Virus record (IMG/VR): IMGVR_UViG_3300042863_002514
Coordinates: 62,001 to 119,063 of that record
DNA length: 57,063 nucleotides
Source: an uncultured virus (IMG/VR IMGVR_UViG_3300042863_002514)
Taxonomy: Duplodnaviria; Heunggongvirae; Uroviricota; Caudoviricetes
Direction: 5' to 3' (one strand)
Position numbers and translations under genes: made by a program. Positions 18,623-52,401 of this stretch are shown in pieces (position 1 is the first letter of the stretch; each line of letters begins with the position of its first letter). A model generated the notes under the pieces. It saw nothing but the letters and a program-made list of their open reading frames with translations, did not search any database and was not told the origin of the DNA.

Positions 18623-19437
18623 ACCAGGAATTCCCACAAGACAAAACAACTGTTCGTCAGTTACTGAATGAATACTTTGGTTGGGAAAGTACCCTTTTCA
18701 CTATACATGATACAGGTGTTGTAGATGCTCATGGATCAATTTTGTTGAGCAAAGAGACCTCTCGATTGCCTGTGAGATTTGGAGTGGTGGAAGGCAATTT
18801 TCTCTGTCACAGGAACAAGTTGGAAACACTTGAAGGCTGTCCTCACACTGTCTTGGACACATTTGATTGCAGTGAAAACCAGTTGATCAGCTTGGTTGGT
18901 GGCCCAAAAACAGTAAAAGGACAATATTCTTGCCAGAATAATAAACTCTCAGATTTGTTGGGAAGTCCACGAGACTTTACACAAGAATACATTGCATACA
19001 ACAACAATTTAGTGAGTTTGCGAGGTGCTCCCCTGCAAATAGGTGGTATGTTTGATGTCAGTAAAAATCTCTTGACTGATCTTCAAGACGCACCACAGAC
19101 CGTGGAATATTTTTGGGCAACCAACAACAAGCTCACAACACTCAAAGGTGCCTCTTTGAATATTTCCAAGCAGTTTATTTTTGATCACAATCCCTTGGAA
19201 AATCTTGAGGGGTTAGGCTCCCAAACTCCTGATTTGATTGAAGTCAGTTACAAATCCGATTTGCCCTTGTTACGGCTTTTGGTAGCCCAGAAGGTCAATT
19301 TTTGGCCTGTGCTGTGGGGCAAGTATATTCAAGTGGAAACCATCTTGAAAAAATACGCAGGCCAGGGCAAACGAGCCCTGTTTGACTGTCAAAAAGAATT
19401 GGAAGACGCAGGATTTGAAAGGAACGCCAAATGGTAG
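18616..19437 (+). CDS. variable LRR protein, array A member 2
   Basis: same repeat and cap; ATGGTAA overlap. Confidence 0.85.
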   Translation: MVNQEFPQDKTTVRQLLNEYFGWESTLFTIHDTGVVDAHGSILLSKETSRLPVRFGVVEGNFLCHRNKLETLEGCPHTVLDTFDCSENQLISLVGGPKTVKGQYSCQNNKLSDLLGSPRDFTQEYIAYNNNLVSLRGAPLQIGGMFDVSKNLLTDLQDAPQTVEYFWATNNKLTTLKGASLNISKQFIFDHNPLENLEGLGSQTPDLIEVSYKSDLPLLRLLVAQKVNFWPVLWGKYIQVETILKKYAGQGKRALFDCQKELEDAGFERNAKW

Positions 19438-20030
19438 ACAAAAGGGAAATTTTGGAACTGTTGGCAGAGTATTTTTTCTTTGAGCCAAATGACGCTGTGA
19501 AATTTGACATAGGTCCTGAGGGCTTGGTTAATGTGCTTGAGCTGACTCCTGGTCGCGGCCATCTCCGCACTATTAAGGACAAACCCTTCCCTGGAGGTCA
19601 GTTGCCTGTGAGATTTGGCTTGTTCAAAGCCAGCTTAAAATTGGACCGGAATCAAATCGTGGACTTGGTTGGTTGTCCCCCTGTAATCCAAGGCAATTTT
19701 GTTGCACTTGGCAATCAATTGAAAAATTTCAAGGGTGGGCCCAAAGAAGTCACAGGTAGGTTTTGGCTTGGGATGCAGAAAAACCTATTAGAGAGTTTGG
19801 ATGGTTTTCCTGATAGGGTGGGTGACTATGCTAAACTGCCTTACCATGACAAGTTGCCGCTGCTGCGCACGTTAGCTTGCCAAGATGGTGTAATATTGAG
19901 CTCATCATCCTTTAACACTAATCCCATTGAAGAAATAATTGAAAAATACAAAGGACAGGGCAAGCGTGCCCTGTTTGAATGTCAAAAAGATCTAGAGGAT
20001 GCTGGATTTGAAGGAAATGCAAGATGGTAG
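19431..20030 (+). CDS. variable LRR protein, array A member 3
   Basis: same repeat and cap. Confidence 0.85.
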   Translation: MVDKREILELLAEYFFFEPNDAVKFDIGPEGLVNVLELTPGRGHLRTIKDKPFPGGQLPVRFGLFKASLKLDRNQIVDLVGCPPVIQGNFVALGNQLKNFKGGPKEVTGRFWLGMQKNLLESLDGFPDRVGDYAKLPYHDKLPLLRTLACQDGVILSSSSFNTNPIEEIIEKYKGQGKRALFECQKDLEDAGFEGNARW

Positions 20031-20629
20031 ACAAACAAGAAGTTCAGCACATGTTGAACACTTATTTTCGTAATGGTGAGGCAGACAACCGGGTGCGCTT
20101 TCAAATTGAAGATAGTGGTATAGTAAATGTGCAGGAGATCACACCAGGATATGGTGTGCTCTTGGCCATACAAGGACCGTTTCCCAATGGAAAACTGCCT
20201 GTAAAATTTGGCGTTTGCCATGCCAGTTTGATTTTAGACAGATGTGGACTCTCCAGTCTTGAAGGTTGTCCGCAGATTGTGGGAGGCAGATTCACTGCCA
20301 ACAAAAATCCTTTGAAAGACATGACAGGTGGGCCCCTTGAGGTTTCAGGTCGTGTGGGATTTAGACAAGAGGTTCCAGTGTTGAGTCTTGCTGGGTTTCC
20401 CCAACGAGTAGGCCAACACTTGAGCATAAATTATCACAATAAATTGCCCTTGCTTCGAGCTTTGAACTGCCAACAGGGCCTAATGCTGTATGCCCACAAT
20501 GTTATGCAAAGCAAACTTCTAACAATTGAAGGAATATTTTACAAATACGCAGGACAAGGCAAACGTGCCCTGTTTGATTGCCAAAAAGAACTGGAAGATG
20601 CGGGCTTTGAAGGAAATGCAAGATGGTAG
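20024..20629 (+). CDS. variable LRR protein, array A member 4
   Basis: same repeat and cap; closest to member 3. Confidence 0.85.
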   Translation: MVDKQEVQHMLNTYFRNGEADNRVRFQIEDSGIVNVQEITPGYGVLLAIQGPFPNGKLPVKFGVCHASLILDRCGLSSLEGCPQIVGGRFTANKNPLKDMTGGPLEVSGRVGFRQEVPVLSLAGFPQRVGQHLSINYHNKLPLLRALNCQQGLMLYAHNVMQSKLLTIEGIFYKYAGQGKRALFDCQKELEDAGFEGNARW

Positions 20630-21282
20630 ACGTCAAACAGCATGTGTTGAACACGCTAACTCAACATTTCATGGTAGATGGGGACCCCATTGTTGATCCA
20701 GCTGGCAAAGTCAGTGTCATGGGAGACGTTGTGTTATACAACAAATTTCACAGTTCTTTTCAAGAACTACCGGTGAAATTTTCTCACATTGAAGGCAGTA
20801 TGATGCTCAGCATCAACCAACTCAAGACACTAGAGGGTTGTCCAGAAACTGTTGGTAAGAATTTTGAGTGTGACAATAATGAACTCAAAAGTTTGAAGTT
20901 TGGACCCAAAACAATAGGCACGACACAAACACCCACATTTGGCGGCAGTTATAATTGCAGTAAAAATCAATTGAAGGATTTGGAAGGGGCACCTAGAGAA
21001 ATCCCCAGTGTGTTCAATTGTTCAGCCAATCCTCTAGAGAGCTTGCAGGGCTTTCCTCAAAAAATTGGAGATAGTTTGTATATCACTTATGATACTCAGC
21101 TGCCTTTGTTGCGCACATTGGTGGCACCAGAGATTATTTTTTGGCCGTATCAAAGCGAGGGCAGCGATGCCTGGAAGGTGTTATACATTTTGGAAAAATA
21201 TTTGGGGCAAGGAAAACGTGTTATGTTTGATTGTCAAAAAGAATTGGAAGATGCCGGATTTGAGGACAACGCCAGATGGTAA
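20623..21282 (+). CDS. variable LRR protein, array A member 5
   Basis: same repeat and cap. Confidence 0.85.
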   Translation: MVDVKQHVLNTLTQHFMVDGDPIVDPAGKVSVMGDVVLYNKFHSSFQELPVKFSHIEGSMMLSINQLKTLEGCPETVGKNFECDNNELKSLKFGPKTIGTTQTPTFGGSYNCSKNQLKDLEGAPREIPSVFNCSANPLESLQGFPQKIGDSLYITYDTQLPLLRTLVAPEIIFWPYQSEGSDAWKVLYILEKYLGQGKRVMFDCQKELEDAGFEDNARW

Positions 21283-21914
21283 ACAAACGAGAAATCTTGC
21301 AGTTATTGAAAGACCATTTCAGCTTTGACTACAACAGTGCAAAAGTTTCATCAGATGGACTGGTAACAGTAAATGGCGATATTCAATTGTTGAATCTCCA
21401 CTATACACGTTTTGAAAAACTGCCAGTTGCCTTCAAAGCTGTAACTGAAAATCTATCGTTAGATGAGAACGCACTAGTAACCTTGGAAGGCTGTCCCCCT
21501 GAAGTGGGCGTGAGTTTTGACTGTTCACGTAACATGCTCAAAAGCCTTAGTGGGGGGCCAGAAATTGTAGGTTGGAACTACTACTGTGACCATAATCAAC
21601 TTGTTGATTTGAAGGGGGCACCTGTCCAGATACCCAATAATTTCAATTGCATTGGTAATCCGTTGAAAAGCTTGGATGGATTTCCGTTGAAAGTGGAAAA
21701 TGCAGCTTGGTTACCGTATCTACCACATTTGCCTCTCTTACGTACCTTGGCAGCAAGGCATATATTTTTAGAGCCTGCTGACGACACTCACACTGTGGAG
21801 AAGGGAAAAGTGCAGACAATTTTGAACAAATATGCTGGCCAAGGCAAACGTGCCATGTTTGATTGCCAAAAAGATTTGGAAGACGCTGGATTTGAGGATC
21901 ATGCAAAATGGTAG
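21276..21914 (+). CDS. variable LRR protein, array A member 6
   Basis: same repeat and cap. Confidence 0.85.
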   Translation: MVNKREILQLLKDHFSFDYNSAKVSSDGLVTVNGDIQLLNLHYTRFEKLPVAFKAVTENLSLDENALVTLEGCPPEVGVSFDCSRNMLKSLSGGPEIVGWNYYCDHNQLVDLKGAPVQIPNNFNCIGNPLKSLDGFPLKVENAAWLPYLPHLPLLRTLAARHIFLEPADDTHTVEKGKVQTILNKYAGQGKRAMFDCQKDLEDAGFEDHAKW

Positions 21915-22525
21915 ACGTTGATAACATCAAAAAAACTTTTGATGATTATTTTCAATGTAATGAAAGCATTGTAATCAATTCTGATGGAACAATAAGCACA
22001 AAAGGTTACGTAACGCTTATGTTGCATGTTAAGAAGTTGCCAGTTGGCTTTTATGAAGTGGAAGGATTTGATGTGGGGGGCATGGGGCTCACAAGCCTTC
22101 AAGGATCTCCCAAATATGTCTACAATGAATTTCGTTGTACTGAGAACAATTTACAAACTCTTGAAGGCGGTCCTGATGCTGTTGGCGAACACTACTTATG
22201 TGGGTTCAACCAGCTCAAGAGCTTGCAAGGTGCACCCAAAAAAGTTCTTGGATCTTTGAGTTGTGTGGGCAATCCACTTGAAAGTCTTGAAGGCATACCG
22301 CAAGAAGGTTTAGGGCGACTAGTGTTACAATATTCGCCCACTTTGCCTTTGCTACGTGCATTGGTTGCCAAAAAAATTGTATTCATGCATAGGGTTGATG
22401 AATCGGAGCCACCCCAGAAGGTTCAAGAAATCATGAACAAATATGCAGGTCAAGGCAAAGCTGCCATGTTTGACTGCCAAAAAGATTTGGAAGACTCTGG
22501 ATTTGAAGGAAATGCACGATGGTAG
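21908..22525 (+). CDS. variable LRR protein, array A member 7
   Basis: same repeat and cap. Confidence 0.85.
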   Translation: MVDVDNIKKTFDDYFQCNESIVINSDGTISTKGYVTLMLHVKKLPVGFYEVEGFDVGGMGLTSLQGSPKYVYNEFRCTENNLQTLEGGPDAVGEHYLCGFNQLKSLQGAPKKVLGSLSCVGNPLESLEGIPQEGLGRLVLQYSPTLPLLRALVAKKIVFMHRVDESEPPQKVQEIMNKYAGQGKAAMFDCQKDLEDSGFEGNARW

Positions 22526-23271
22526 ATCTAGCCGGGATCAAAAAAACTTTTGACAAATATTACTCTCACACAGGTAAACTCTCTGTTGATCCCAACACAG
22601 GATTGATATCCTGCACAGGCAGTGTCAAGAGCAAGGAGAAATCTTACCTTGATGGTAAGCCAGGTATAAAAACCTTGCGGGTAAGGTTTGGAAAAATACG
22701 CTACGATTTTGCTGTACAGCATACCGATCTGGTGAGTCTAGAAGGCGCACCCTCTTGGGTAGGTAGAGATTTCAAGTGTGGCCACAACCAACTCACCAGT
22801 TTGTTGGGTTCGCCTCAACATGTGGGCGGAGATTTCAAATGCGATAATAACAACATAGAAAGCCTTGAACACTGTCCCAAATCAGTTGGTGCCAATTTCT
22901 CTTGTATGACAAATCAACTCTCATCACTGGAACATGTTCCTGAGAAAGTGCATGATTTGTTTTGCATGGAAAACAAACTAGTCTCACTACACGGTGCACC
23001 AAAAACCATCACTGGCGAGTTGAGAGCATGGGGTAATCAGCTAGAGTCACTTGAAGGAATGCCTACTGAAGTAAGGGTTTTATGGATTGACTACAGCCCC
23101 ACTCTGCCGCTCTTGCGTTGTTTAAATGCTAAAAAACTGTGGTCGGGTATGGGATGGCCACACGAGGTGCGGGCTATTCTGCAAAAGTATATGGGTCAAG
23201 GCAAACGTGCCATGTTTGACTGCCAAAAAGAACTGGAAGATGCTGGATTTGAAGGGAATGCAAGATGGTAG
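22519..23271 (+). CDS. variable LRR protein, array A member 8
   Basis: same repeat and cap. Confidence 0.85.
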   Translation: MVDLAGIKKTFDKYYSHTGKLSVDPNTGLISCTGSVKSKEKSYLDGKPGIKTLRVRFGKIRYDFAVQHTDLVSLEGAPSWVGRDFKCGHNQLTSLLGSPQHVGGDFKCDNNNIESLEHCPKSVGANFSCMTNQLSSLEHVPEKVHDLFCMENKLVSLHGAPKTITGELRAWGNQLESLEGMPTEVRVLWIDYSPTLPLLRCLNAKKLWSGMGWPHEVRAILQKYMGQGKRAMFDCQKELEDAGFEGNARW

Positions 23272-23870
23272 ACAAAAAAGAAGTAATGGCTTTGTTGAAA
23301 GCTAATTTCAAAACAACAGGCCAAGTCACAATAGATCCTGAGGGGTTGATCACTTGCCAGGGTAATGTTATACTTAAAAGACAATTACCCCAGTTCCCTG
23401 TGCGTTTCAAGAGTGTTCTTGGACACTTCCAGTGCGATTACAACCAACTAACCACACTGGACGGGGCGCCAGAGAGTGTTGGTGGAAGTTTCTTAGGCTC
23501 AAGTAACCAACTTATTTCACTTAAAGCTGCACCCAAGAATGTGGTTGGAAGTTTCGTATGCTTCAACAACCAACTGACTTCACTGGAAGGTGCTCCCAGC
23601 AGTGTTGGTGATCTTTTTAGTTGTCACCTCAACCCATTAACCTCACTCCAAGGTATGCCTTCAGAGCTCAATTACTTGGCTATACCTTACACGCCTACTC
23701 TTCCACTGCTCCGTTGTTTGGCAGCCAAAAGTATCTCGTTGCGGTCAGCAATGAATCACACGACTGTTGAAACAATCTTGAACAAATACGCAGGACAAGG
23801 CAAACGTGCCATGTTTGATTGTCAAAAAGAACTAGAAGATGCTGGATTTGAGGATAATGCAAGATGGTAA
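23265..23870 (+). CDS. variable LRR protein, array A member 9
   Basis: same repeat and cap. Confidence 0.85.
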   Translation: MVDKKEVMALLKANFKTTGQVTIDPEGLITCQGNVILKRQLPQFPVRFKSVLGHFQCDYNQLTTLDGAPESVGGSFLGSSNQLISLKAAPKNVVGSFVCFNNQLTSLEGAPSSVGDLFSCHLNPLTSLQGMPSELNYLAIPYTPTLPLLRCLAAKSISLRSAMNHTTVETILNKYAGQGKRAMFDCQKELEDAGFEDNARW

Positions 23871-28123: not shown

Positions 28124-28198
28124 TGGTCCGGGTGAGGAATTTCGCAATCCTGGCCTCTGGTTCCCAAAACCAGCGCTCTGCTTCTGAGCTACACCCAG
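28124..28198 (-). tRNA. tRNA-Pro (UGG)
   Basis: CTGGT TT TGG GA ACCAG; ACCA; atypical T-loop. Confidence 0.85.
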
Positions 28199-28220
28199 TA
28201 ACTCGTAAATGAAAACTTAG

Positions 28221-28287
28221 TGGACCACCTGGGAGATGATCCCAGACCCCGTCATCGTCCACTGTGGGTTTTCCAGTGGGGTGTCCA
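28221..28287 (-). ncRNA. tRNA-like mini RNA (closing stem, hairpin, T-like arm)
   Basis: GGACACC/GGTGGTCC A, CCACTG/CAGTGG, CTGGG-7nt-CCCAG. Confidence 0.45.
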
Positions 28288-28301
28288 ACATGGCCCTAAA
28301 T

Positions 28302-28496
28302 CTAGTGACAGCGTCGGACAGTGACGTGGCGACGCTGATATCTGTCATAATAGCTAGTGTAATGACACACTGGTGTTGGAGGACCATAGTGTCGCGGGTA
28401 TGTGCTGTAGCCAGATCGGTGATCGGAATAGTAGGGTGCGGGTGCACAGCCAATCAATAGGCCCAACAAAGCAACAATTGGTAACAGTCGTGTCAT
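28302..28496 (-). CDS. small lipoprotein
   Basis: lipobox LIGC after a hydrophobic segment. Confidence 0.65.
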   Translation of the reverse strand: MTRLLPIVALLGLLIGCAPAPYYSDHRSGYSTYPRHYGPPTPVCHYTSYYDRYQRRHVTVRRCH

Positions 28497-28697
28497 TTTG
28501 AGTTCCTTCCACTCAAACAAAAATCTCTCAGGGAGGTTGCACACTCCCCTTCCTGCCCAAAACCCACAAATTCATTTGAATTTGTGTACGGTGCAACGCT
28601 TTTGGGCAGAGCACTCAATACCTGCTGTAGGACTGCATATAAAGCAGGCCAAATATCTATCTATTTTCAATTATATATGAGAGAAGGAAACTGTCAA

Positions 28698-31034: not shown

Positions 31035-31055
31035 TTATTGTCTTGACGTTAAATC

Positions 31056-31160
31056 GCCATCGCCGGATGCCACTTCCGGATTTCTTCACCAGCTAGGTGA
31101 TTGCTGCCGGCTAGTTACCATTCTCATGGTGTGTTGGGAGGCTGTTCCAACCTCGATGGC
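31056..31160 (-). ncRNA. multibranch structured RNA inside the tRNA cluster
   Basis: GCCATCG/CGATGGC closing stem enclosing four hairpins. Confidence 0.5.
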
Positions 31161-31182
31161 AATTGTTGGTTGAGAGAATAGT

Positions 31183-32561: not shown

Positions 32562-33368
32562 TTAAGGCTCTAAAAAGTATTTTTGATACTTATCTGGATT
32601 TTGCCTCACGTAAGCGGGTAAATCCACAGAGTCAAAAGGCAAAAGCTGCCATCGACAATGTTCTCTACCCAAAATATCTTCCCCAGCCCTAGCTCGTTTG
32701 ATGGGATCAATCTTGCTCAAAACGCCAGGAGTGTTGAACTCTTGATGAGCAAAGTTCTGGACTTTTTCAATTATTTGTTCCTTTGTCATCATATAGCTGA
32801 GATGCCATCCAGCATCGTGCCACCACCACATGTGAGAGAAATGTCCATCTCTAATGCCCATTCGATATTCTGTAGGAGTGGCATTTTTGAGTTCTTCAAA
32901 ATATACCCCCACACTCCAAACTTGAGGACCACTGCCTGCTTCATTTTTGTTATTTAAAAACGTGAAATAACTCAACTGTTGAAATCCAAAAAGCTTGTAT
33001 TCTTGGTTTTCAAGACAGGCTTGTATACAGTCAGGTCTAATGATTTCATCACAATCTGATATCAAGATCAAGCTGTTGGGCTCTGCATCCCACAATCCTC
33101 GGGTAATGGCATCTCTTTGAAAGACTTCGTTACCCCAAACGCTTTCATTGGGAAAATCCGTTACTAAAATATATCGTATTTTGTGGGCAAAATCTGCAAC
33201 TCTTGGGTCAGAGATATCAAATTTCAATTCCTTGGGGCGACCCACATGTGTGAAAATGCTTTCAACAATCACAAAATAGTCCACAACAGGGGTGTGTGTG
33301 TTCAAACGTAGCTCGAGTATGCTCCATTCACCATTGAAACAAAAACAGTCATAAACTTTCTTTTTCAT
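32562..33368 (-). CDS. GT17-like glycosyltransferase
   Basis: YDCF.FN.E...LELRL, VD.FVI.E, E..QR, ISDCDEI, GWHLSY, F.HQE. Confidence 0.88.
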   Translation of the reverse strand: MKKKVYDCFCFNGEWSILELRLNTHTPVVDYFVIVESIFTHVGRPKELKFDISDPRVADFAHKIRYILVTDFPNESVWGNEVFQRDAITRGLWDAEPNSLILISDCDEIIRPDCIQACLENQEYKLFGFQQLSYFTFLNNKNEAGSGPQVWSVGVYFEELKNATPTEYRMGIRDGHFSHMWWWHDAGWHLSYMMTKEQIIEKVQNFAHQEFNTPGVLSKIDPIKRARAGEDILGREHCRWQLLPFDSVDLPAYVRQNPDKYQKYFLEP

Positions 33369-34174
33369 TCTAATCCTGGTGACAAAAAGTGTTTTTCAAA
33401 TTTGGTCCAATTTTTCCAAATATATGCTGGTAGGTCCAATTGATTTTTTTCCATCAATTTCCAACTCATCCAGTCTCTGCCCAAAAGGTCGCGTCCTGCC
33501 AATGCAGCTTCAACTGGATCAATTGTGCTCAAAACTTTTGGGTTGTTGAACTCTTGATGAGTAAAATTCTGCACTTTCTCAATTATTTTTTCTTTGTCCA
33601 TAAGATAACTGAAATGCCAACCACTGTTGGTGAAAATCCAAATGCCCTGATACTTGGCTCCGCGGATACCCCATCGGTAATCATCTGGCGTATGGTTTTT
33701 GAGTTCTTGGAAACGAACCCCAACCGATGCTATTTCTGGAGGATGCCCGTGAACATTCACATTGTTAATGTAACAGTAATACCAAGCTAGTTCAAAACCA
33801 AACAAGTTATAGCTGTGATCTCTAGCAACCCCTACTGCCTCTCGCCTTGGTAGTTCGTCACAGTCGCTTATAATGACCAAATCTTGTGGCTGTGCGTCCC
33901 ACAAGCCTCTCATAGCGGCATTCCGCTGAAATCTATCATTGCCCCACGCATCTTGATTGGGCATATCTGAAACCAGGATATAACGTATCTTGCGTGTGAA
34001 TTTACTTAATCTGCTGTCACGAATATTGAACTGTAATTTTTTGGGTATGCCCATATGTGTGTGATTGCTTTCAGCAATTACGAAATAATCAACCACAGGA
34101 TCAAGAGTATTGAGCCTTAACTCCAGTAAATCCCATTCTCCGTTGAAACTGAAACAATCATATACTTTGTTCAT
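33365..34174 (-). CDS. GT17-like glycosyltransferase (tandem paralog)
   Basis: same motifs; clearly paralogous to its neighbour. Confidence 0.88.
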   Translation of the reverse strand: MNKVYDCFSFNGEWDLLELRLNTLDPVVDYFVIAESNHTHMGIPKKLQFNIRDSRLSKFTRKIRYILVSDMPNQDAWGNDRFQRNAAMRGLWDAQPQDLVIISDCDELPRREAVGVARDHSYNLFGFELAWYYCYINNVNVHGHPPEIASVGVRFQELKNHTPDDYRWGIRGAKYQGIWIFTNSGWHFSYLMDKEKIIEKVQNFTHQEFNNPKVLSTIDPVEAALAGRDLLGRDWMSWKLMEKNQLDLPAYIWKNWTKFEKHFLSPGLE

Positions 34175-34192
34175 TTGATTCTCAAAAATTTC

Positions 34193-34282
34193 CGGAGCCG
34201 GAGGGATTCGAACCCTCGGTACACCTTTACAATGTACAACGGTTTAGCAAACCGTCGCCTTAAGCCTCTCGGCCACAGCTCC
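34193..34282 (-). tRNA. tRNA-Ser (GCU)
   Basis: ACGGT TT GCT AA ACCGT; long variable arm. Confidence 0.92.
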
Positions 34283-34329
34283 ATCAGTTGTATCTACAGG
34301 ATATGTATCTTGGTGTCAATATAGGTGAA

Positions 34330-34402
34330 TAGCGCCAGGGATAATTGAAATCCCGTCTCTCCGGTGAAAACGGAGTGTTCTCGACCACTAAACTATGGCG
34401 CC
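34330..34402 (-). tRNA. tRNA-Glu (UUC)
   Basis: CTCCG TT TTC AC CGGAG. Confidence 0.8.
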
Positions 34403-34411
34403 ACAAATATT

Positions 34412-34486
34412 TGGAGGTCAGTGAGGGATTTAAACCCCCGTGTAACGGATTTGCAGTCCGTTGCATAATCGCTCTGCCAACTGACC
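34412..34486 (-). tRNA. tRNA-Cys (GCA)
   Basis: ACGGA CT GCA AA TCCGT; U73, CCA. Confidence 0.88.
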
Positions 34487-34511
34487 AAATTCTATCCTTT
34501 TGTCTTAAAAC

Positions 34512-34631
34512 AATCGTAGATGAATAATATTACTGGCTGCATGGATTTGTCTACCATTATCAGCTCTAGACCGGGGACTTTCACCCAGTTGACCTTTGGG
34601 AGCGTTTAGCTCAATTGTTTCATCTACGATT
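34512..34631 (-). ncRNA. structured RNA closed by a long stem, first element after the attenuator
   Basis: AATCGTAGATGAA...TTCATCTACGATT 13-bp inverted repeat enclosing smaller hairpins. Confidence 0.5.
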
Positions 34632-34695
34632 ATCTGTTTGTGCTTTCATATTTGTTTCTCGTTTTCCTCTCTCCTTGCATAAATGTCCAACCAAC

Positions 34696-34730
34696 AAAAA
34701 ACCCTCCGAGACTTGTGATCTCTGGAGGGT
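34696..34730 (-). terminator. intrinsic terminator (attenuator) upstream of the tRNA array
   Basis: ACCCTCC A GAGAT CACAA GTCTC GGAGGG TTTTTT. Confidence 0.85.
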
Positions 34731-34776
34731 CCTGAAAAGTCTATATCAAAGTTGATCTAGATCTTTTCACCTCCAG
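34722..34776 (-). promoter_or_regulatory. antiterminator hairpin mutually exclusive with the terminator
   Basis: CTGGAGG-TGAAAAG-A-TCTA pairs with TAGA-CTTTTCA-GGAC-CCTCCAG, sequestering the terminator 5' strand. Confidence 0.75.
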
Positions 34777-34873
34777 GTGCTGGGACTGGCTTGCGCACAA
34801 TACCGGCGGGCTGATACTCATTGCTAAATGAGCAATCCCTTTCCCAAATATTATGCATCAGTTTTGAAAACAT
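34757..34873 (-). CDS. putative attenuator leader peptide (38 aa)
   Basis: MFSKLMHNIWERDCSFSNEYQPAGIVRKPVPAPGGEKI*; AAGGA/GGA upstream; its TAG lies inside the antiterminator 5' strand. Confidence 0.7.
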   Translation of the reverse strand: MFSKLMHNIWERDCSFSNEYQPAGIVRKPVPAPGGEKI

Positions 34874-34931
34874 TTTTATAGTTCCAGTCCTTTTGTGTTT
34901 GGGCAACATACTGTTGTTTGCTACCTTAAGT

Positions 34932-34962
34932 TATTTATAGGAGAAGGTTCAAAAAATGTCAA
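34932..34962 (-). promoter_or_regulatory. sigma70-type promoter overlapping a T4-like late promoter
   Basis: TTGACA-17 nt-TATAAA, extended to TATAAATA. Confidence 0.8.
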
Positions 34963-34978
34963 CGGAAAAAAATTATTT

Positions 34979-35707
34979 TTAGATTTCAACCCCATAAAAT
35001 TCATGTACCCCATGTTTGCCATGAAACCCCAAGCTTTTGCCCAGCCAAGGGCTTTCAAAGTTTCTTTCGATACTGAATTGATCAGCCAGCGCAAGGGGTG
35101 CAAATTTTATACCAAACTCTTTTTCCAATTTTTGTCGATACCATCTACAGATGATGTTGTCTTCTGGAATATAACGAAGTTGTTTGGCATAGCCTTGTGA
35201 GGCCAGCCAGTCTTTTTCCAATACTGTGCCAGGATAATCATCAACATCTGTAGGTAAATTCAAAGCGTCTAGAGCGGATAACAATTTTTTACTGCGAAGG
35301 CAAAAACCGCCATTGCCTACTAAATTTTCACACCACCAGGTCCATTTTTTCCAAACCGCGCCAGTGTAATCATAGTTCCAGAACTCATCTGTCCAGGCAT
35401 CTTTGTTCACCGCATAGCCATCAGCGTGAATTATGAGGTTGAAATCTTCTTCCACCAGTTTTGGACACTGGCGCAACATTACTTCAGAGTAGACTTTCTG
35501 AAAACAAACCTCTTCAAGAGTGTTATCAATCTGAGGAATTTGTATATGTTGTATTGTTACACTAGTGTCTATCTGCAATGGCTGATCACTGAACCAATAG
35601 ATTTTTTTGATATCAAGATGATTTAAGGTTTCCAAGGTTCGCTCTAGTGCAACCTTTGTTTTTGAATAAAATTTAGTGTCAACACATGTGATGCCTAGTG
35701 TGGGCAT
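34979..35707 (-). CDS. DUF5672-like putative glycosyltransferase
   Basis: LII..DG, W.DEF..YDY.GA.W, VGNGGF.LRS.KL, ED, A.QFS.E, GFHG. Confidence 0.8.
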   Translation of the reverse strand: MPTLGITCVDTKFYSKTKVALERTLETLNHLDIKKIYWFSDQPLQIDTSVTIQHIQIPQIDNTLEEVCFQKVYSEVMLRQCPKLVEEDFNLIIHADGYAVNKDAWTDEFWNYDYTGAVWKKWTWWCENLVGNGGFCLRSKKLLSALDALNLPTDVDDYPGTVLEKDWLASQGYAKQLRYIPEDNIICRWYRQKLEKEFGIKFAPLALADQFSIERNFESPWLGKSLGFHGKHGVHEFYGVEI

Positions 35708-35796
35708 GGAGATTTTTCCTTGTTCAACAAAACATTATAGCATCATTGCCCAGATATATAAATAATGCACAATTTGCACCCCTTTTGGAGACACCA

Positions 35797-43595: not shown

Positions 43596-45005
43596 TTAGG
43601 TAAAAGCTTCTTGCAGCTTCTGAGCTAGTTCCGTACTCTTGAGCTTTTCCAGTGCTTTGCTTTCAATCTGGCGCACACGCTCACGAGTGACACCAAATTT
43701 GTTGCCAATGTCTTCCAGTGTGCTTTGTTCGTTTACACCAATACCAAAGCGCATCCTGATCACACGCTCTTCCTTGGGACTGAGATGTTTCAAGACCTCT
43801 GACACTGCATATGCGCTGTCAGCCTCAGCCAAGAGGTTAAACGCATTCACCCCTTCAGTGTCTTCAATAAGATGTGCAATGGTTTGATCTTCTTCACCGC
43901 CAATTGGCGTTTCCAGAGAGATTGTGCCCTGCGCAACACTGTAGACTTTGTCTACGTTTTCCACATCAATTTCCAGCATCTCTGCAATTTCTTGCACACT
44001 GGGCTCAAAACCATTGTGATTTACAAACTCAGCTCGTGCTCGCGTTACCTTCTTGGCAAGGTCGCTCATGTGAGCTGGGATACGAATGATACGATGATGC
44101 TCATTCAAGGCTTTCAGCACACACTGCTTGATCCACCAAGTGGCGTAGGTGCTGAAACGAAATCCCATCTTCCAATCAAACTTCTCAATAGCTTTCAAGA
44201 GACCAATGTTGCCTTCTTGAATGAGATCAAGAATGGGAGTTTGACTGATGTTGGTGTATTTCTTTGCCACACTCACCACGAGTCGAAGATTGCTCTTGAG
44301 CATAATCTCCACTGCCTCGTCCTTGTTTTTTTGCTCTTGCCGAATCTGGCGGCATTTTTCAAGGAGTGTGTCAAGTGGCATACCCGTGTTGGCAACAAAA
44401 CTTGCTAGTTGCGACTCATGCTTTTCCACTTCGGCTTGGTGAACTGTTTTGAACCGCAGCCAATTTTTGTCTTGTGACATGCTTTGGTATGCGGCTAGGA
44501 ACAACTCACGAGAGACTCCTTTGCTTTGTGCAAAGCGCAGGTAAGCTCCTTGTGCGCTAATAATGTCTTTCACCATGTCGTTGAAGGGCTGAACCATGCT
44601 GTCGTAAAAGCTGAGTTTGAAACTCAGCGAAGAACAGGTTTCAGCCACTCGTTGACAGAGTTCACTATTGGGGCTGGTGCTTAACAGCATAATATCCTGT
44701 TGAATGTTTGCTAGATTTGTGAGCAGAGGGGCTAGTTCTGTTTCTTCAATGTCAAAAATGCTGTGGCTGTCAATTTCCCCTTTTACTACACCTTGAATCT
44801 TGGTATCAAACTGCCATACTGCCATAGGAATAGAGAACAGATTCAAGAGCAGGTTTTTCTTGCTGTTTTCAATTTGTTGACTAAATTGAATTTCCTGCTG
44901 ATGTGTAAGCAACTTGTTTTTGGCAACCTGCTTGAGATACAGTTTGGTTGCATCCATATCACTGGATTTTTCAATAGTTTTGGCTGTCGTTGTAGCGGGT
45001 GTCAT
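43596..45005 (-). CDS. RpoD-like sigma70 factor
   Basis: NLRLVVSVAKKY, DLIQEGNIGL.KA.EKF, FSTYATWWI, IRIP.H, TRERVRQIE.KAL. Confidence 0.95.
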   Translation of the reverse strand: MTPATTTAKTIEKSSDMDATKLYLKQVAKNKLLTHQQEIQFSQQIENSKKNLLLNLFSIPMAVWQFDTKIQGVVKGEIDSHSIFDIEETELAPLLTNLANIQQDIMLLSTSPNSELCQRVAETCSSLSFKLSFYDSMVQPFNDMVKDIISAQGAYLRFAQSKGVSRELFLAAYQSMSQDKNWLRFKTVHQAEVEKHESQLASFVANTGMPLDTLLEKCRQIRQEQKNKDEAVEIMLKSNLRLVVSVAKKYTNISQTPILDLIQEGNIGLLKAIEKFDWKMGFRFSTYATWWIKQCVLKALNEHHRIIRIPAHMSDLAKKVTRARAEFVNHNGFEPSVQEIAEMLEIDVENVDKVYSVAQGTISLETPIGGEEDQTIAHLIEDTEGVNAFNLLAEADSAYAVSEVLKHLSPKEERVIRMRFGIGVNEQSTLEDIGNKFGVTRERVRQIESKALEKLKSTELAQKLQEAFT

Positions 45006-45061
45006 ACTCTACTCCATGCTTCAGTCTGAAAGATACTACAAGTATAGGGTGTGTCAATTCT

Positions 45062-45688
45062 TCATATGGTTGGGAATAAAATATTTTCCACAAAATACTG
45101 GCCACGCTCTTCTCCCAGTATCTTCATGAGAACTCTAGTAGTATGAGTGTTTTGTCTTTGGTTCAAACTGTATTGATTTTGCTTCTTTATGACCATAGGT
45201 ACATCTGTTGTGGTTTTTGTTCCCAACTGAGATAGATATTGTTCCAACAGTGTGCATGCCAATGTGCTGATGGTTTCAGCTTCCGTATATGTGGGTCTGC
45301 AAGCGATCCAATGCTCGCTGAAAATTGTTCCCCATTCAGGTCTTTCACGTGGCTCACTCCATAGATGACTAGATATGATTCCATAACTTTCAACAGTGGG
45401 ACTGAAATCAAAAAACAAACCTGTGGCCTTGGTGTCACTGGCAATGATATCAAACCCAAAAATAGGGCTGGGATCAGTCAGGTGAGGAAAGATCACAGTG
45501 TGCAACACACTGAATTTTGGTTGCTGAAATCTTTCCACATGAGCAAGCCGAAACTGTTGGCTATACCATCGGTTATTGGTCCAACCAAAATCCTCTGTTG
45601 GTATCTCCGTCAAGAGAGTGGTGTTGTTTTGGATCAGCTGCTCAAATTTATCAGCCGTTTGGTTGATGAGATTGATGAAGTTCGTCAT
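45062..45688 (-). CDS. ferredoxin-dependent bilin reductase (PcyA/PcyX-like)
   Basis: FR.AHVE, VLH..IFP, PIFGFDI, DFSP, PEWG.IFS, Q.QN..T..V. Confidence 0.85.
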   Translation of the reverse strand: MTNFINLINQTADKFEQLIQNNTTLLTEIPTEDFGWTNNRWYSQQFRLAHVERFQQPKFSVLHTVIFPHLTDPSPIFGFDIIASDTKATGLFFDFSPTVESYGIISSHLWSEPRERPEWGTIFSEHWIACRPTYTEAETISTLACTLLEQYLSQLGTKTTTDVPMVIKKQNQYSLNQRQNTHTTRVLMKILGEERGQYFVENILFPTI

Positions 45689-46178
45689 AGTACCTTGTTG
45701 TCATCTCAAAGCTGAGATTGGCCTCTTCAGCCAAACCAGCATGTGTTTTGTAGCGAATCTCAGCAATAGCTGCTTTGGGTGTTTCAAAACTCAGCATGTT
45801 TACCGGAAAACGAGGGCTCAAAATCTTCTTCAAGATTTGACCACCATAGAGCGGGGCAAGGTAGTGCACATACACATGCGCCCACAATTGGCTTTCAGAC
45901 ACAGTTTCCAGTCTCTCGTGAAATTCAAAAAAACTGGCAGGTAAAGTGGGACTGTGGGACCCCATCTCTTTCCAGTCCTGGAACGCACAGCCTGCTCGAG
46001 GCAAGTCAGCACACTCAAAAGCAAGTCTGCTTTCAATAACAGAATACAACAAGTGTTTGCTGTACACTAGATCAGAGTAGCATTCAGGTGTTATATCTCC
46101 AGAAAGCATAGCAGCCATCAAAGGAGTACTTTCGGCAAGCTTGTGATTTGCCCAAGTAAGTGTTTTTAAATCGCTCAT
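45651..46178 (-). CDS. heme oxygenase (HemO/Ho1-like)
   Basis: LK..T...H..AE, AHVYV.YL..L.GGQI, EA...F. Confidence 0.88.
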   Translation of the reverse strand: MSDLKTLTWANHKLAESTPLMAAMLSGDITPECYSDLVYSKHLLYSVIESRLAFECADLPRAGCAFQDWKEMGSHSPTLPASFFEFHERLETVSESQLWAHVYVHYLAPLYGGQILKKILSPRFPVNMLSFETPKAAIAEIRYKTHAGLAEEANLSFEMTTRYYDELHQSHQPNG

Positions 46179-46259
46179 ATAACTATATAGTTGTAGTTTA
46201 TGTGGGTTTCAACATAGTTTGCACTTTTTTGACAAATCTTTTGGTGTTAAGCAGAACAG

Positions 46260-46286
46260 AAAAGAGGGGCAAAAATGCCCCTCTTT
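46260..46286 (-). terminator. intrinsic terminator
   Basis: aaagaggggc/gcccctcttt hairpin. Confidence 0.7.
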
Positions 46287-46302
46287 GTCCCAATCGTTCG
46301 GC

Positions 46303-46575
46303 TTAATCTAGTGCAGCCTTGTCACTGTTGGCTCGAACCTCCTGGAAGGTCCAGTCCCGCAGCAGCTCTCCATTTCGATAGACTGGCAGGAGCATGTTGG
46401 CCCAATCAAATCCACTGTTGACAGGCAGTGTTTCCCACTTGCCACGTTCCCGAGTGAGGATCAGTCGGCCACGCTTGCTGGTCTTGCCCTTGTCGGTCAC
46501 AGGGTCTTTGTAGACATCCTGCCACTCACCATTGATCTTGGCAGCAGAGGCTTTCATTGCAAACTTCTGTGTGTC
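46303..46575 (-). pseudogene. orphaned duplicate 3' end of NAMPT
   Basis: DTQKFAMKASAAKINGEWQDVYKDPVTDKGKTSKRGR... parallels the C-terminus of the NAMPT ORF. Confidence 0.85.
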
Positions 46576-46676
46576 TATACTGATGGTAGGTCATGCAGAA
46601 AAGACGGACACTTATATAGCAGTAAGAATAGGTGAAGCCCTTCAAGTGTATAAATAAACCAAAAGGAGAATAAAAT

Positions 46677-47711
46677 ATGAATTGCCACCGATGCGGGGGG
46701 CCTGCTACATATACAACTAAGGATGGCAAACACCTATGTCATCAAAATCCAGCAAAATGTCCCGCTTGTTCTACAAAAGGAAAGCCTCAAAAAAAGAAAA
46801 TTCAACCCATTGAGTATGATGGTGATCATTTATGTGATTACGGGTGCAACAAAACAGCCAAATGGAAATTCCGTAACAGCAAATATTGTTGTAATCGCAA
46901 CAGTGCCAATTGTGAACATATAAGGATACAAGCCGGACAGAAAATCAGAAAGTCAAAATTTATTGAGGTAGCTCCAGGAGTTACTTTGGGGACTCTTGCA
47001 TCACAGAAAGCAGCCAAAACAAAAGCATCTGATATTGATGTCTATGGCAATAACGCTCACCAAAGAAATGCTGAAAAAGTAGCCAACATCAAAAGAAATA
47101 AAATTGACAACGATACTGGATTAAATGTCCATAAGCTAACAGCTAAAAAATACCAACAATGGCTTAAATCAGAAGAAGGACAAAAATGGATCACAAAGAT
47201 AAGCGAAAAAAATCAGAAATCTATGAATACTGTAATTAATCCAGCCACCGGTGAAACAGAGGCTATGCGACGTGCCAGTATTATGGTAGAAACCAAATCC
47301 CAGAACATTGATGAACTTGGCTTAAATGGGTTTGAGCGAGCACACTGGAAATCCAACTCTAAAAATTCAGGCTTCATAGAAGGCATATTTTGGCAATACT
47401 CAAATGAACGGCGTTTTTTGGAACGGGCAAAAGCTGTAGGAATCATAGAGAATGTCACAAGAGGACCAATGATCAAATACACGTTTCACGGTAAGGAAAA
47501 AACCTTTTTTGCAGATTTCCGGATTGAACACAAAATCTTTGAGGTCAAGTCAAAATACACATTGTTTGGTCCCAAAAATTCATTCTTAGAACAAAATATA
47601 GCCAAGCTCTTTGCTGCGCAAAGAGCTGGCTACGACGTGTATCTTGTTATCGATGACGAGACAGTCTTATTAAAAGACTTTCTCAGATCGATCTCTAATG
47701 TCCTGGAATGA
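46677..47711 (+). mobile_element. free-standing putative homing endonuclease (Cys-rich N-terminus, PD-(D/E)xK-like C-terminus)
   Basis: AT-rich, opposite strand, CDYGC...CC motif, NE..F...ADF...EVKS; sits between the two NAMPT 3' ends; own TATAAATA and GGAG. Confidence 0.7.
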
Positions 47712-49079
47712 TTGATCAATGAGAAGGCGTCCATTCCGGTAGACTGTCTGCAGAACGTCGGTCCACACCACACCATTCTCAAGACCGCGTAGAGGAGTGT
47801 TAACGCTTGTTTGAAATTGGTTACCTGACTGCCAAAGGGTAACTTTACCTTTCTTGGATGTTTTTCCTTTGTCTGTAATAGGATCCTTATATACCTCGCG
47901 CCATTCCCCATCAATACAGGCAGCTGAAGCTTTCATCGCAAATCGATTGGTGTCGCGAGTAATACCTTGCAAGAGTTGGCCGCCCATGCCCACAGCCACG
48001 TTTTCTGCACTCCAGCCGCGTGCTGTGAGGTTGTCATACAGGGTTTTGATGCTGTCAATGTTCATGCCATCGCCCTGGATCACACGCACACTCTTGTTCA
48101 GCACCTTGTAGCCCTTGCTGTTGACGGTGTAGCCAAACCGCTCACCAAGTGCCTCAACCACATCAACTGGCACCACAACTGGATCACCGCTGTCGGGACG
48201 AATCACAAGGGTGGCCCCACTGTCTAGCACACGGTCTCGCAGTGTTTCGCCCCAGATGTGGTTGACCGCGTTCATGATGTCGTAGCTGTCGCTCACCACT
48301 GCAAGGATGCTGCCTGGCCGGGCAAACTGCTTGAGCATGTTGCCATAGGCCTCAGCTTCGCCATCGCGACCCCAACTGGTGATGGTGCTGTGCTCTGCTG
48401 CCGGAATGCTAAACCCTGCCATGGCCTCGGTGTAGTAGCGTCGGGCTGCAAGGAGGGCTGCAACAGTGTCGGTGCCTCGGAAGTTCACTAGGTGAGCACT
48501 GCCACCCAGCTGAGCGCTTTCATCGCTGCTGACGCCACGAGCGCCAAAGTCGTGCAGTCGAAACAGAAGCTCGCCTTCGGGGTTGTCGCTGCTCTTCCCC
48601 AGTGCAGCTCGAATGGTCTGCTTGGCATGCCAGCTGAGTGTGGCCACTGTGGTGGGGTACCAAACAGCACGGAGTAGAGCTGTCTCTAGGAAGCTAGTGA
48701 GCCAGGGCACATTGGGATCGGTGTTCACCACAGTGGCTAGCACGTTGTGAGTGGGGATCACCATGCCTTCGGGCACTGCTCGAATCTCTACTGGCAACCG
48801 GCCCTGGTGCTCACGCACAATGTATTCCCAGCCTTCCCGATGGAAAGGCACCATGTGTGCGGCTGCCAATCCAGCAGCCTCGTCCACGTCGCTCATGGTC
48901 ACTGGAGTCACCAGCCGACGCTTGAGCCACATTTGGAGCCCGTAAAACAGTGTGCGAGGGAAGCGTCCGCCGCGACTTTCTACGTAGCTGTGAATGTGTG
49001 TGGTGTTTGGGGGAAGTTGCCACGGATGGCTGAATTTGTAGCTGTCGACGTCAAGAATGACGCTATCGTAATTGAACAT
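47670..49079 (-). CDS. nadV: nicotinamide phosphoribosyltransferase
   Basis: DSYK.SH, WYPTTVAT, LHDFGARG, SIPAAEHS, VSDSYD, IRPDSGDP, IQGDG. Confidence 0.96.
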   Translation of the reverse strand: MFNYDSVILDVDSYKFSHPWQLPPNTTHIHSYVESRGGRFPRTLFYGLQMWLKRRLVTPVTMSDVDEAAGLAAAHMVPFHREGWEYIVREHQGRLPVEIRAVPEGMVIPTHNVLATVVNTDPNVPWLTSFLETALLRAVWYPTTVATLSWHAKQTIRAALGKSSDNPEGELLFRLHDFGARGVSSDESAQLGGSAHLVNFRGTDTVAALLAARRYYTEAMAGFSIPAAEHSTITSWGRDGEAEAYGNMLKQFARPGSILAVVSDSYDIMNAVNHIWGETLRDRVLDSGATLVIRPDSGDPVVVPVDVVEALGERFGYTVNSKGYKVLNKSVRVIQGDGMNIDSIKTLYDNLTARGWSAENVAVGMGGQLLQGITRDTNRFAMKASAACIDGEWREVYKDPITDKGKTSKKGKVTLWQSGNQFQTSVNTPLRGLENGVVWTDVLQTVYRNGRLLIDQSFQDIRDRSEKVF

Positions 49080-49106
49080 AACAAGTCTCCCTTGTTCAGT
49101 ATGTGA

Positions 49107-49129
49107 AGGAAAAGGTCTATCCTTTTCCT
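49107..49129 (-). promoter_or_regulatory. 5' UTR hairpin GGAAAAGG-ATAGA-CCTTTTCC upstream of NAMPT
   Basis: same AAAAGGATAGACCTT sequence found upstream of the NadM-Nudix gene. Confidence 0.6.
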
Positions 49130-49169
49130 GTGTCATATTTATAGGCTAGATGCCCAATTACGTCAACTT

Positions 49170-49901
49170 TTAAATTTTTGAAAACAGCTCATCGTATGAG
49201 TTTTTCCTGCCCGCTATATGCCATTTTTCCATCAAATTGTTTCGTACTCGAAACTGGTAAAATGCTGAGAACCAGCTTTTTTTGCTGTTCTTCCTTGAAG
49301 TTCTTTCAAGATAAATTCCGCCAGCAGTCGAAGTGAATTTCAAAGGCACTGTAATATTGGGCCTAGAATAGTATGCAATCAGCTCATCCCTAGCATTATC
49401 AAAAGCTTTTTGTAACGCCTCTTGTCTCCAAGGATGTCGGAAATCCACGATTTGATCGTCACAAACAACCATGTGTTGCGCATCCCACATCACTTGATAG
49501 TGGAGTTGACACTTTGTTTTGATATCAGATGTAAGCCATGAGTTTTGAATTATATCTGATAGTTTGAGAGACCCAAAAGTTTGTGGAGCTGTAGCGTGTT
49601 TTCTGCGAGTTCTGATCTCGATACTGTAGGGCGGTACGTCAATCCCTCTGCTGTGATTTATAGGATACCCTAAACTTCCAAGTTCTCCTTCAACCCACTG
49701 AGTCACTGCCCCAGTAAAGCCGGACGAATCAATTGGTTTTGCCCCAGAAAACATTGTTTCAAAGGAGGAGTCATCATCGTCAATAACTTGTTCACTTGCG
49801 AGTATTTTCTCCACCACATAATCTGGTAAAGGAGTTCCTGGGAGAATAATAGGCCTTTTTAGATGTGTAACTGCAATGGGAGAGTCAGGAATTATAATCA
49901 T
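49170..49901 (-). CDS. hypothetical (possible restriction-endonuclease-like fold)
   Basis: ORF with a G.D...IEIRTR pattern. Confidence 0.5.
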   Translation of the reverse strand: MIIIPDSPIAVTHLKRPIILPGTPLPDYVVEKILASEQVIDDDDSSFETMFSGAKPIDSSGFTGAVTQWVEGELGSLGYPINHSRGIDVPPYSIEIRTRRKHATAPQTFGSLKLSDIIQNSWLTSDIKTKCQLHYQVMWDAQHMVVCDDQIVDFRHPWRQEALQKAFDNARDELIAYYSRPNITVPLKFTSTAGGIYLERTSRKNSKKSWFSAFYQFRVRNNLMEKWHIAGRKNSYDELFSKI

Positions 49902-49904
49902 AAT

Positions 49905-50462
49905 TTATGAATCCTCAAAATCAACTCGTGTGTAGAGGGGGATCAAGCGAATCTTTTCTGCTGATAGATTCTCTCGCGCACCTTCCAGTCGGTCAACGAC
50001 TGTGAGCACTGTGTCCACTTGGCAACCAATCTCCCGCACAGCCTCAACAGCCCGCATGATGCTGCCTCCAGTAGTAGTCACATCTTCCACCAGCACCACT
50101 CGGCTACCCGGAGTGCAGTGGCCATCAATCTTTGTTTGCACGCCGTGATCTTTCACTTCTTTTCGCACAAAGAAAGCTGGATAATGGCGACTGCGTAGGT
50201 AGCTTTTGGTGGCAATGCTGGTAACCAACGGAACGCTGCCCACAGCCATCCCTCCTACGCTGTCAAAATCCAATGTATCGAGAATATCCAGCATAGCATC
50301 AGCAATGAGATTGCTGCCCATGGGATCCAACATGGAGATCTTCATGTTGAAGAAGTAGTTGCTGGCTGCTCCACTGCTGAGAGTGAAGTTTTGATCTTGA
50401 ATCAAACTTTTTTCCGAGATGAGATCGCGTAAATGCCGGTAGGCTCGTGCAGTCATAACCAT
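49905..50462 (-). CDS. pyrE: orotate phosphoribosyltransferase
   Basis: FTLSSG..S.Y, VRKE.K.HG, VEDVTTTGGS, VVDR.EG. Confidence 0.93.
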   Translation of the reverse strand: MVMTARAYRHLRDLISEKSLIQDQNFTLSSGAASNYFFNMKISMLDPMGSNLIADAMLDILDTLDFDSVGGMAVGSVPLVTSIATKSYLRSRHYPAFFVRKEVKDHGVQTKIDGHCTPGSRVVLVEDVTTTGGSIMRAVEAVREIGCQVDTVLTVVDRLEGARENLSAEKIRLIPLYTRVDFEDS

Positions 50463-50472
50463 TGAAATTTCC

Positions 50473-50700
50473 TTATCGTTCCCAGGGGTATGTGTAGGTT
50501 TTCGGGTCAAGTCGTGAGATGATGCTGATCATGCGTGCAAATGTGCCACAGTTCACCATCACTGTATTGCTGTTGGCAATGTCAGCAGCATGCAAGAGCA
50601 CCCCAAATTTGCCACTTTTCACATCTTCAATCAACTGTTTATCTCGCCGTAGACTTTGCTGATAGTCGTCAAAATCACGTTGTTCGTCGTAGTGTCCCAT
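50473..50700 (-). CDS. hypothetical protein
   Basis: ORF within an overlapping operon. Confidence 0.55.
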   Translation of the reverse strand: MGHYDEQRDFDDYQQSLRRDKQLIEDVKSGKFGVLLHAADIANSNTVMVNCGTFARMISIISRLDPKTYTYPWER

Positions 50701-51297: not shown

Positions 51298-51307
51298 TAC
51301 CTTTTTC

Positions 51308-52378: not shown

Positions 52379-52401
52379 CGCAAAAATCCTTTGCTCAATC
52401 T

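Follow-up and report, generated by a model that had tools for sequence, protein, structure and literature searches.

The window analysed here is a stretch of 57,063 nucleotides (nt) from an uncultured Caudoviricetes virus, bases 62001-119063 of the 119-kilobase (kb) IMG/VR virus record IMGVR_UViG_3300042863_002514, which is estimated to be 34% complete. Its minus strand carries, between 34962 and 34696, a leader element composed of a promoter, a short open reading frame (ORF), an antiterminator and a terminator, positioned ahead of a small structured RNA and the first genes for transfer RNAs (tRNAs). The region is present identically in three further IMG/VR contigs, the longest of which spans 310 kb and is 76% complete (hereafter, the sister contig), and its DNA was found in lake-water metagenome runs. 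The GC content is 45%, and ORFs of at least 120 codons already cover 88% of the window under the standard genetic code. A first-pass annotation of the sequence had described a TTGACA-17-TATAAA promoter, a 38-codon ORF and an intrinsic terminator on the minus strand, and we read all three at the same places. The element consists of the following parts:

34934..34962, minus strand: sigma-70-type promoter (TTGACA at 34962-34957, 17-nt spacer, TATAAA at 34939-34934), with transcription expected to start at about 34928-34926
34900..34926, minus strand: predicted hairpin at the 5' end of the transcript
34757..34873, minus strand: leader ORF, running from ATG at 34873 over 38 codons (MFSKLMHNIWERDCSFSNEYQPAGIVRKPVPAPGGEKI) to TAG at 34759-34757
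34783..34890, minus strand: predicted enclosing helix (GGACUGG at 34890-34884 with CCAGUCC at 34789-34783) around a long imperfect hairpin (about 34857-34793) that spans codons 6-27
34722..34776, minus strand: antiterminator, in which CUGGAGGUGAAAAG at 34776-34763 (codons 33-37) pairs with CUUUUCA at 34739-34733 and CCUCCAG at 34728-34722, leaving a GGAC bulge between them
34768-34734, minus strand: inner hairpin GAAAAG..CUUUUC, common to both conformers
34696..34732, minus strand: intrinsic terminator, with its stem at 34732-34702 and a T6 tract at 34701-34696

Two predicted, mutually exclusive conformers at the end of a short reading frame

The terminator, with an energy of -19.5 kcal/mol, ranked sixth among the 79 terminator-like hairpins that a script scan found in the 119-kb record. 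Mutual exclusion between this terminator and the antiterminator, proposed in the first-pass annotation, was borne out by folding both conformers: for nascent transcripts of 210-228 nt the antiterminator had the lowest energy of all folds, and the terminator won from 234 nt onward. Sequestration of the terminator arm yielded a gain of -12.1 kcal/mol, as compared with -4.6 +/- 2.3 kcal/mol in shuffled sequences, and a gain of this size was reached by 2/400 shuffles and by 3/400 in a second control in which only the sequence 5' of the hairpin was shuffled. Both the 111-nt switch region (z = -3.9) and the whole 449-nt leader (z = -4.6; 0/100) folded better than all of their shuffles. The anatomy of the switch, comprising promoter, ORF, antiterminator and terminator, is real and statistically unusual, and it is conserved in the relatives described below.

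The 5' strand of the antiterminator ends 3 nt before the leader TAG, the geometry of trp/his-type attenuation that had been recognized at the outset. A ribosome located at the stop codon would therefore mask this strand, which would stay free if the ribosome stalled anywhere between codon 1 and about codon 28. The long hairpin formed by codons 6-27 does not pair with the antiterminator strand. In the predicted folds of both the window and its relative L093 (a single relative represented by three contigs, L093-L095, from one metagenome scan), the leader AUG falls within 27 nt that are unpaired and A/U-rich, a stretch whose length is kept in L093 although 9 of its bases differ. An additional in-frame ATG at 34909, inside the 5'-terminal hairpin, is lost in L093, and at the other end the leader frame is open for 36 codons beyond the TAG. 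The leader promoter was missed by our consensus promoter scan because the scan demands a T at position 6 of the -10 hexamer.

The first 26 codons of the ORF encode 19 of the 20 amino acids, lacking only Thr, without any single-codon run, and the pairs of synonymous codons listed in the first-pass annotation are all present. This diversity, although noticed post hoc, is unusual: at least 19 amino acids within 26 codons were found in 12 of the 41,875 stop-free six-frame segments of the window, at six places, with five of the 12 lying in the leader ORF itself. Among dinucleotide shuffles of the 78 nt concerned, 162 of the 43,929 that were stop-free attained the same diversity (P ~0.004).

Conservation in relatives and presence in RNA libraries

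Outside the element, L093 is more diverged: the DUF5672 protein encoded upstream is 85% identical, the flanks show an identity of 0.40-0.93 per 60-column window, and the overall identity by BLAST is 80.8%. A word-based search with the peptide returned one relative, and an exhaustive search over 1.84 billion representatives gave five matches, of which only one was real, a third peptide variant from the Logan assemblies (P0121; 38 amino acids, with the changes S17C and Q21M). A fourth lineage is known from RNA contigs alone. The AUG, the frame, the length and the stop position are common to all three peptide variants.

In L093, the -35 and -10 hexamers are unchanged with two changes in the spacer, and the ORF keeps its AUG, its 38 codons and the position of its stop, which is TAA instead of TAG. 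Codons 2, 3 and 5 differ (F to A, S to A and L to Q, respectively), and codons 6-38 carry no synonymous change. Full retention of the amino-acid coverage in relatives was not supported: L093 and P0121 both have 18 of the 20 amino acids in their first 26 codons, with Leu lost. The diversity thus stems for the most part from codons 6-26, which are invariant, and is not visibly maintained against drift.

Between 34858 and 34690, L093 differs at four positions, namely the G of the stop codon, which is unpaired, two bases in a hairpin loop and one in a bulge. Both antiterminator strands are invariant; the bulge change turns a G-U pair at the foot of the terminator into A-U and makes the antiterminator bulge AGAC rather than GGAC. 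All 13 terminator pairs are invariant, as are 7/7 pairs of the enclosing helix and 24/26 of the long hairpin, an architecture shared by the folds of the window and L093. The 5'-terminal hairpin, which L093 forms in a shifted register, has one one-sided and zero two-sided changes by formal pair count.

From codon 6 (34858) to about 34490, identity to L093 is 0.93-1.0 per 60-nt window, as compared with 0.73-0.83 in the 5' untranslated region and 0.62-0.72 in the adjacent tRNA-Cys, thus delimiting a tract of about 370 nt at 97% identity within surroundings of 80%. This tract extends past the terminator to the end of the structured RNA. The parts that follow the terminator are:

34637..34695, minus strand: linker between the terminator and the structured RNA, with one change in L093; the 7 substitutions and 3-nt deletion of the fourth lineage fall here
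34507..34636, minus strand: structured RNA of about 130 nt, the first product 3' of the terminator, with a closing stem of 16-17 base pairs around three small hairpins (-40.5 kcal/mol)
34192..34486, minus strand: first tRNA block, with Cys(GCA) at 34412-34486, Glu(UUC) at 34329-34403 and Ser(GCU) at 34192-34283

The 130-nt structured RNA is 95-98% identical in L093 (versus 62-72% for the adjacent tRNA), and its variants either lie in loops or keep the pairing (A-U to G-U, G-U to A-U, U-G to C-G). A search of 34150-35050 with 4227 Rfam models placed neither the leader nor the structured RNA in a family at E up to 10, the only matches being tRNAs and chance-level ones. Over 34689-34855 the fourth lineage does not differ from L093; its differences are gathered in the ~45 nt that follow.

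Logan contigs from four freshwater metatranscriptome runs, carrying L093-type variants, cover 34855-34689, 34855-34569 and 34855-34472; they thereby span the terminator on both sides and include the structured RNA. DNA carry-over into these libraries is possible, and the depth of the contigs cannot measure termination efficiency or rank the parts. None of them covers 34856-35750, which is uninformative because the contigs carry the variants of the relative, whose flanks are too diverged for the 88% threshold.

Searches beyond this small group returned little. Anchoring on the upstream DUF5672 gene gave 80 IMG/VR loci, of which one, the identical contig, had tRNAs; anchoring on an RNase T-like gene retrieved only the three identical contigs; and anchoring on the GT17 genes described below gave tRNAs in 6/75 non-identical loci. 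The nearest of the latter (48% identity) has promoters directly before tRNA-Ser and no leader, with the head of its array lying beyond the contig. Two exact DNA patterns of the element had no match in 185,579 prokaryote genomes, no leader paralogue was found in the sister contig, and a blastn search of 34400-35100 against 50,697 records of cultured phages gave no match. We consider a cultured relative to be absent because the phage sigma factor has only matches below 60% identity among cultured phages. The tRNA region of the Xanthomonas jumbo phage Xoo-sp13 yielded no usable comparison.

The unit behind the terminator and the surrounding tRNA region

About 205 nt separate the terminator from the first tRNA, a distance that holds the conserved structured RNA. 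Two tandem GT17-family glycosyltransferase genes (32562-34174, minus strand) follow with tRNA blocks on either side, and the DUF5672 gene lies just upstream of the leader. No strong minus-strand terminator or promoter was predicted between 34696 and the promoter at 31668, and read-through would therefore reach six tRNAs. The unit behind the terminator plausibly comprises the structured RNA, tRNA-Cys/Glu/Ser, the two GT17 genes and tRNA-Ala/Val/Phe. In L093 the leader is again followed by the structured RNA and then, within 6220-7770 of L093, by divergent Cys- and Glu-like tRNAs (34.3 and 40.2 bits) not called by ARAGORN and by two opposite-strand ORFs of 231 and 166 amino acids inserted before tRNA-Ser; the cargo common to both phages is thus made up of the structured RNA and two tRNAs.

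The first-pass annotation had placed some 26 tRNAs on one strand behind the leader and the whole array under its control. All tRNAs indeed lie on the minus strand, but the count came to 18 by ARAGORN and one extra Rfam match, and in the sister contig all 19 tRNA-model matches fall in this region. Consensus promoters stand directly before tRNA-Lys (31668) and tRNA-Asn (29724), as well as at 28697 and 27469, and the last six tRNAs are set off by plus-strand ORFs, nine of them back-to-back at 17966-23870 and one at 17476. Control of the whole array is untenable because of these internal promoters and the plus-strand gene block; at most 6 of the 18 tRNAs lie behind the terminator.

The idea that the phage tRNAs replace whichever host tRNA causes a stall fared no better. 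Their anticodons correspond to 15 amino acids and a CUA suppressor, and no phage tRNA for Thr, Asp, His, Ile, Trp or Tyr was found in the window or the sister contig; five of these six amino acids are used in the first 26 leader codons. The phage tRNAs read 16/26 of these codons under strict wobble rules, for which phage genes give a background of 0.48 (P = 0.12), and 19/26 under liberal rules, for which the background is 0.66 (P = 0.31). With no significant enrichment, we rejected a match between the leader codons and the phage tRNAs.

Several further features of the region were recorded. The nine plus-strand ORFs at 17966-23870, opposite in strand to all tRNAs, have 199-273 codons and overlap by 7 nt each, and the first has no PHROG match. 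A skipping-rope RNA (RF02924; 44.5 bits, gathering threshold 36.7) lies at 31055-31161 on the minus strand, just after two tRNA-Lys genes. The tRNA with the CUA anticodon (8921-8994, minus strand), an amber suppressor, is labelled Pyl by ARAGORN; we rejected recoding of TAG, given the 88% ORF coverage under the standard code and the TAA stop of the relative's leader. A 121-nt Rfam tRNA match missed by ARAGORN (15942-16062, minus strand; 43.8 bits) may be a tRNA with an insert. At 28198-28697 (minus strand) a second unit, which may be another regulated leader, has a perfect TTGACA-16-TATAAT promoter, a structured 5' region and a terminator-like hairpin (GGGAG..CUCCC followed by a T run), and continues with a lipoprotein-like ORF of 64 codons (many of them for Tyr, Pro, Arg and His), another hairpin and tRNA-Pro.

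Other genes of the window encode a sigma factor, enzymes for the salvage of nicotinamide adenine dinucleotide (NAD), Sir2 and collagen-like tail proteins. The sigma-70-family sigma factor, a nicotinamide phosphoribosyltransferase and a nicotinamide mononucleotide adenylyltransferase/Nudix protein are encoded at 43596-53924 and the Sir2-like gene at 15115-15993, which together suggests a set for host takeover and NAD salvage.

Interpretation of the element and its biological meaning

We tentatively read the element as a translation-coupled transcription attenuator that heads the first tRNA/small-RNA unit of a lake giant phage and senses the general speed of decoding. We infer that the leader ORF is translated, that the ribosome sets the outcome and that decoding speed is the signal. 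Transcription would begin at the sigma-70-type promoter, and as long as the polymerase is still 5' of the 3' arm of the terminator the RNA would form the antiterminator, an extended hairpin holding the 5' arm. A ribosome that has reached the leader stop would cover the 5' strand of the antiterminator, allowing the terminator to form and transcription to end; if the ribosome were delayed in about codons 1-28, or if there were none, the antiterminator would stay intact and read-through would enter the structured RNA, tRNA-Cys/Glu/Ser, the two GT17 glycosyltransferase genes and probably tRNA-Ala/Val/Phe. Because the ORF has no codon run and uses nearly every amino acid, the switch would respond to the overall rate of decoding, not to the supply of one amino acid. 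A more specific version, in which the codon set was itself selected to sample nearly every amino acid and a shortage or cleavage of host tRNAs opens the first tRNA block and the small RNA, appears unlikely.

Translation is favoured by the retention of the AUG, the length and the stop position, with one stop codon exchanged for another, and by the unpaired stretch around the AUG. Several observations weigh against a translational reading. The only Shine-Dalgarno-like core near the leader AUG (AGGA) ends 15 nt 5' of it, which is not canonical spacing (of 91 long ORFs, the 35 with such a core have it 5-11 nt upstream). We found no clear pairing in the leader able to sequester the antiterminator strand without ribosomes (an anti-antiterminator, or 1:2 pairing), and the default state would therefore be read-through. 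Codons 6-38 show zero synonymous changes while neighbouring genes differ at about 1 base in 5, and the five amino-acid differences among the three variants are all non-synonymous, which rules out the peptide as the main object of selection; this fits selection on nucleotides (RNA structure, codon identity, or both), under which the ORF could be incidental. The first-pass annotation had proposed looking in relatives for the ORF together with a covarying terminator and antiterminator: the three parts are kept in L093, but covariation speaks neither for nor against either conformer (102/111 pairs invariant, 2 one-sided and 0 two-sided changes, counted over two distinct sequences only), and the comparison set is thin and made of close relatives only. 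Finally, the RNA contigs of 4/4 runs all end at 34855, where codon 7 begins, and none has a loose end. These ends are a weak hint of an abundant RNA whose 5' end lies inside the ORF and which lacks the start codon, and they could also arise if the assembly graph branches between strains at the border of the conserved block.

Much of this evidence suits a serious alternative, the main one and in our view somewhat unlikely, in which the interval 34858-34689 yields a stable small RNA that ends at a leaky terminator and may be processed at its 5' end, or else makes up the leading stable RNA of a polycistronic small-RNA/tRNA precursor; the ORF would be accidental and the antiterminator pairing without regulatory role. 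Conservation at the nucleotide level fits an RNA function at least as well as it fits attenuation; the peptide homologues are all near-identical, and the P0121 changes S17C and Q21M fall in codons predicted to lie in loops, one of a hairpin and one internal. The conserved block (34858) and the RNA contigs (34855) both begin at codon 6/7, the fourth lineage is identical over 34689-34855 and diverges immediately downstream, the contigs bridge the terminator, and the Shine-Dalgarno spacing points the same way. Yet so strong a sequestration of the terminator arm is rare (2-3/400 shuffles) and would be counterproductive for a simple terminated small RNA, three variants retain the AUG, frame, length and stop position, the promoter and 5' hairpin upstream of 34858 are conserved as well, and the contig ends may be assembly branch points. 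An RNA switch controlled by a factor or ligand would likewise make translation irrelevant: the domain within GGACUGG/CCAGUCC would bind a protein, an RNA (e.g., a tRNA) or a small molecule and bias the choice of terminator. An enclosing helix, a structured domain and an expression platform follow one another in a conserved layout, nucleotide conservation extends to unpaired positions, and the 449-nt leader folds far better than its shuffles. We nevertheless give this account a low probability. The 3' strand of the enclosing helix ends 6 nt upstream of the antiterminator strand without overlapping it, providing no obvious coupling of domain folding to the switch; the domain is essentially one long imperfect hairpin, and no Rfam model, the T-box included, matched at E up to 10.

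Two further explanations were weighed. A purpose-built pan-tRNA sensor, switching on the entire phage tRNA array as replacements for any depleted or cleaved host tRNA, was the proposal of the first-pass annotation, an interpretation that the analysis supports in part, for the anatomy of the switch. Such a sensor would share the attenuator geometry of our preferred reading and account for the 19 amino acids and several synonymous codons within 26 codons, and strict conservation at synonymous sites would also fit selection on codon identity. It is very improbable given the separate promoters before other tRNAs, the plus-strand block splitting the region, the limit of six tRNAs behind the terminator, the amino acids without a phage tRNA, the lack of enrichment in codon matches and the fall to 18/20 in relatives. 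The other is chance: an early promoter and a short ORF, neither of them remarkable, may happen to lie next to the terminator that closes a small transcription unit, the near-identity with L093 marking a recent recombination tract. Phage genomes are mosaic, recent exchange could account for a 370-nt tract of this kind, and the amino-acid diversity, itself a post hoc observation, is matched at five other places in the window. Chance is distinctly unlikely, however, in that two separate lineage comparisons give the same module boundaries, the differences avoid paired positions, and the antiterminator is rare in shuffles.

In its parts the attenuator resembles those of enterobacterial leaders (trpL, hisL, leuL, thrL, ilvL, pheL), which likewise combine a short ORF, an intrinsic terminator and an exclusive antiterminator, and in which the terminator is favoured once a ribosome has reached the stop, and read-through when it stalls further upstream. 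It differs from them in having no regulatory codon run (19 amino acids are sampled) and no clear 1:2 pairing, in being phage-encoded, and in its cargo, where tRNAs, glycosyltransferases and a structured RNA take the place of biosynthetic enzymes; no Rfam leader family matched the element. T-box riboswitches are also terminator/antiterminator leaders that report on the tRNA pool, but they work without translation, by direct binding of one uncharged tRNA. Their antiterminator bulge is UGGN, whereas the bulge here is GGAC or AGAC, and 34150-35050 had no T-box match at E up to 10. In phage T4, early promoters drive the co-transcription of tRNA genes with two structured stable RNAs, 'species 1 and 2', whose function is unknown, an arrangement that resembles the tRNA genes and structured RNA found here 3' of a promoter. 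We know of no leader-ORF attenuator described for the T4 cluster, and full-text literature searches found none described before phage tRNA genes. A parallel in logic is the whiB7 (wblC) upstream ORF of mycobacteria and other Actinobacteria, for which ORF-dependent antitermination upon translational stalling of many causes has been described (PMC10274678). The likeness is limited to the sensing of general decoding stress: whiB7 encodes a WhiB-family transcription factor on a bacterial chromosome, and its upstream ORF is specifically Ala-enriched (PMC10274678), whereas the leader ORF of the window has 2 Ala among 38 residues, its cargo is a structured RNA and tRNAs, and there is no sequence relation between the two. 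The element is, in this sense, a known kind of switch with an unusual cargo.

Hardly anything is known of how phage tRNA genes are regulated, and these genes have been linked to escape from host defences that cleave tRNAs (PMC10264068, PMC11555353). Even without translation, the module and the 130-nt RNA are unusually constrained, occur in RNA-library contigs, belong to no family and deserve a name. Should our reading hold, the switch would be a simple and portable means of sensing translation speed and of feeding it back on tRNA supply; and if its codon set was in fact selected for sensing decoding speed, it would be a counter to tRNA-targeting defence, monitoring the very damage that it repairs.

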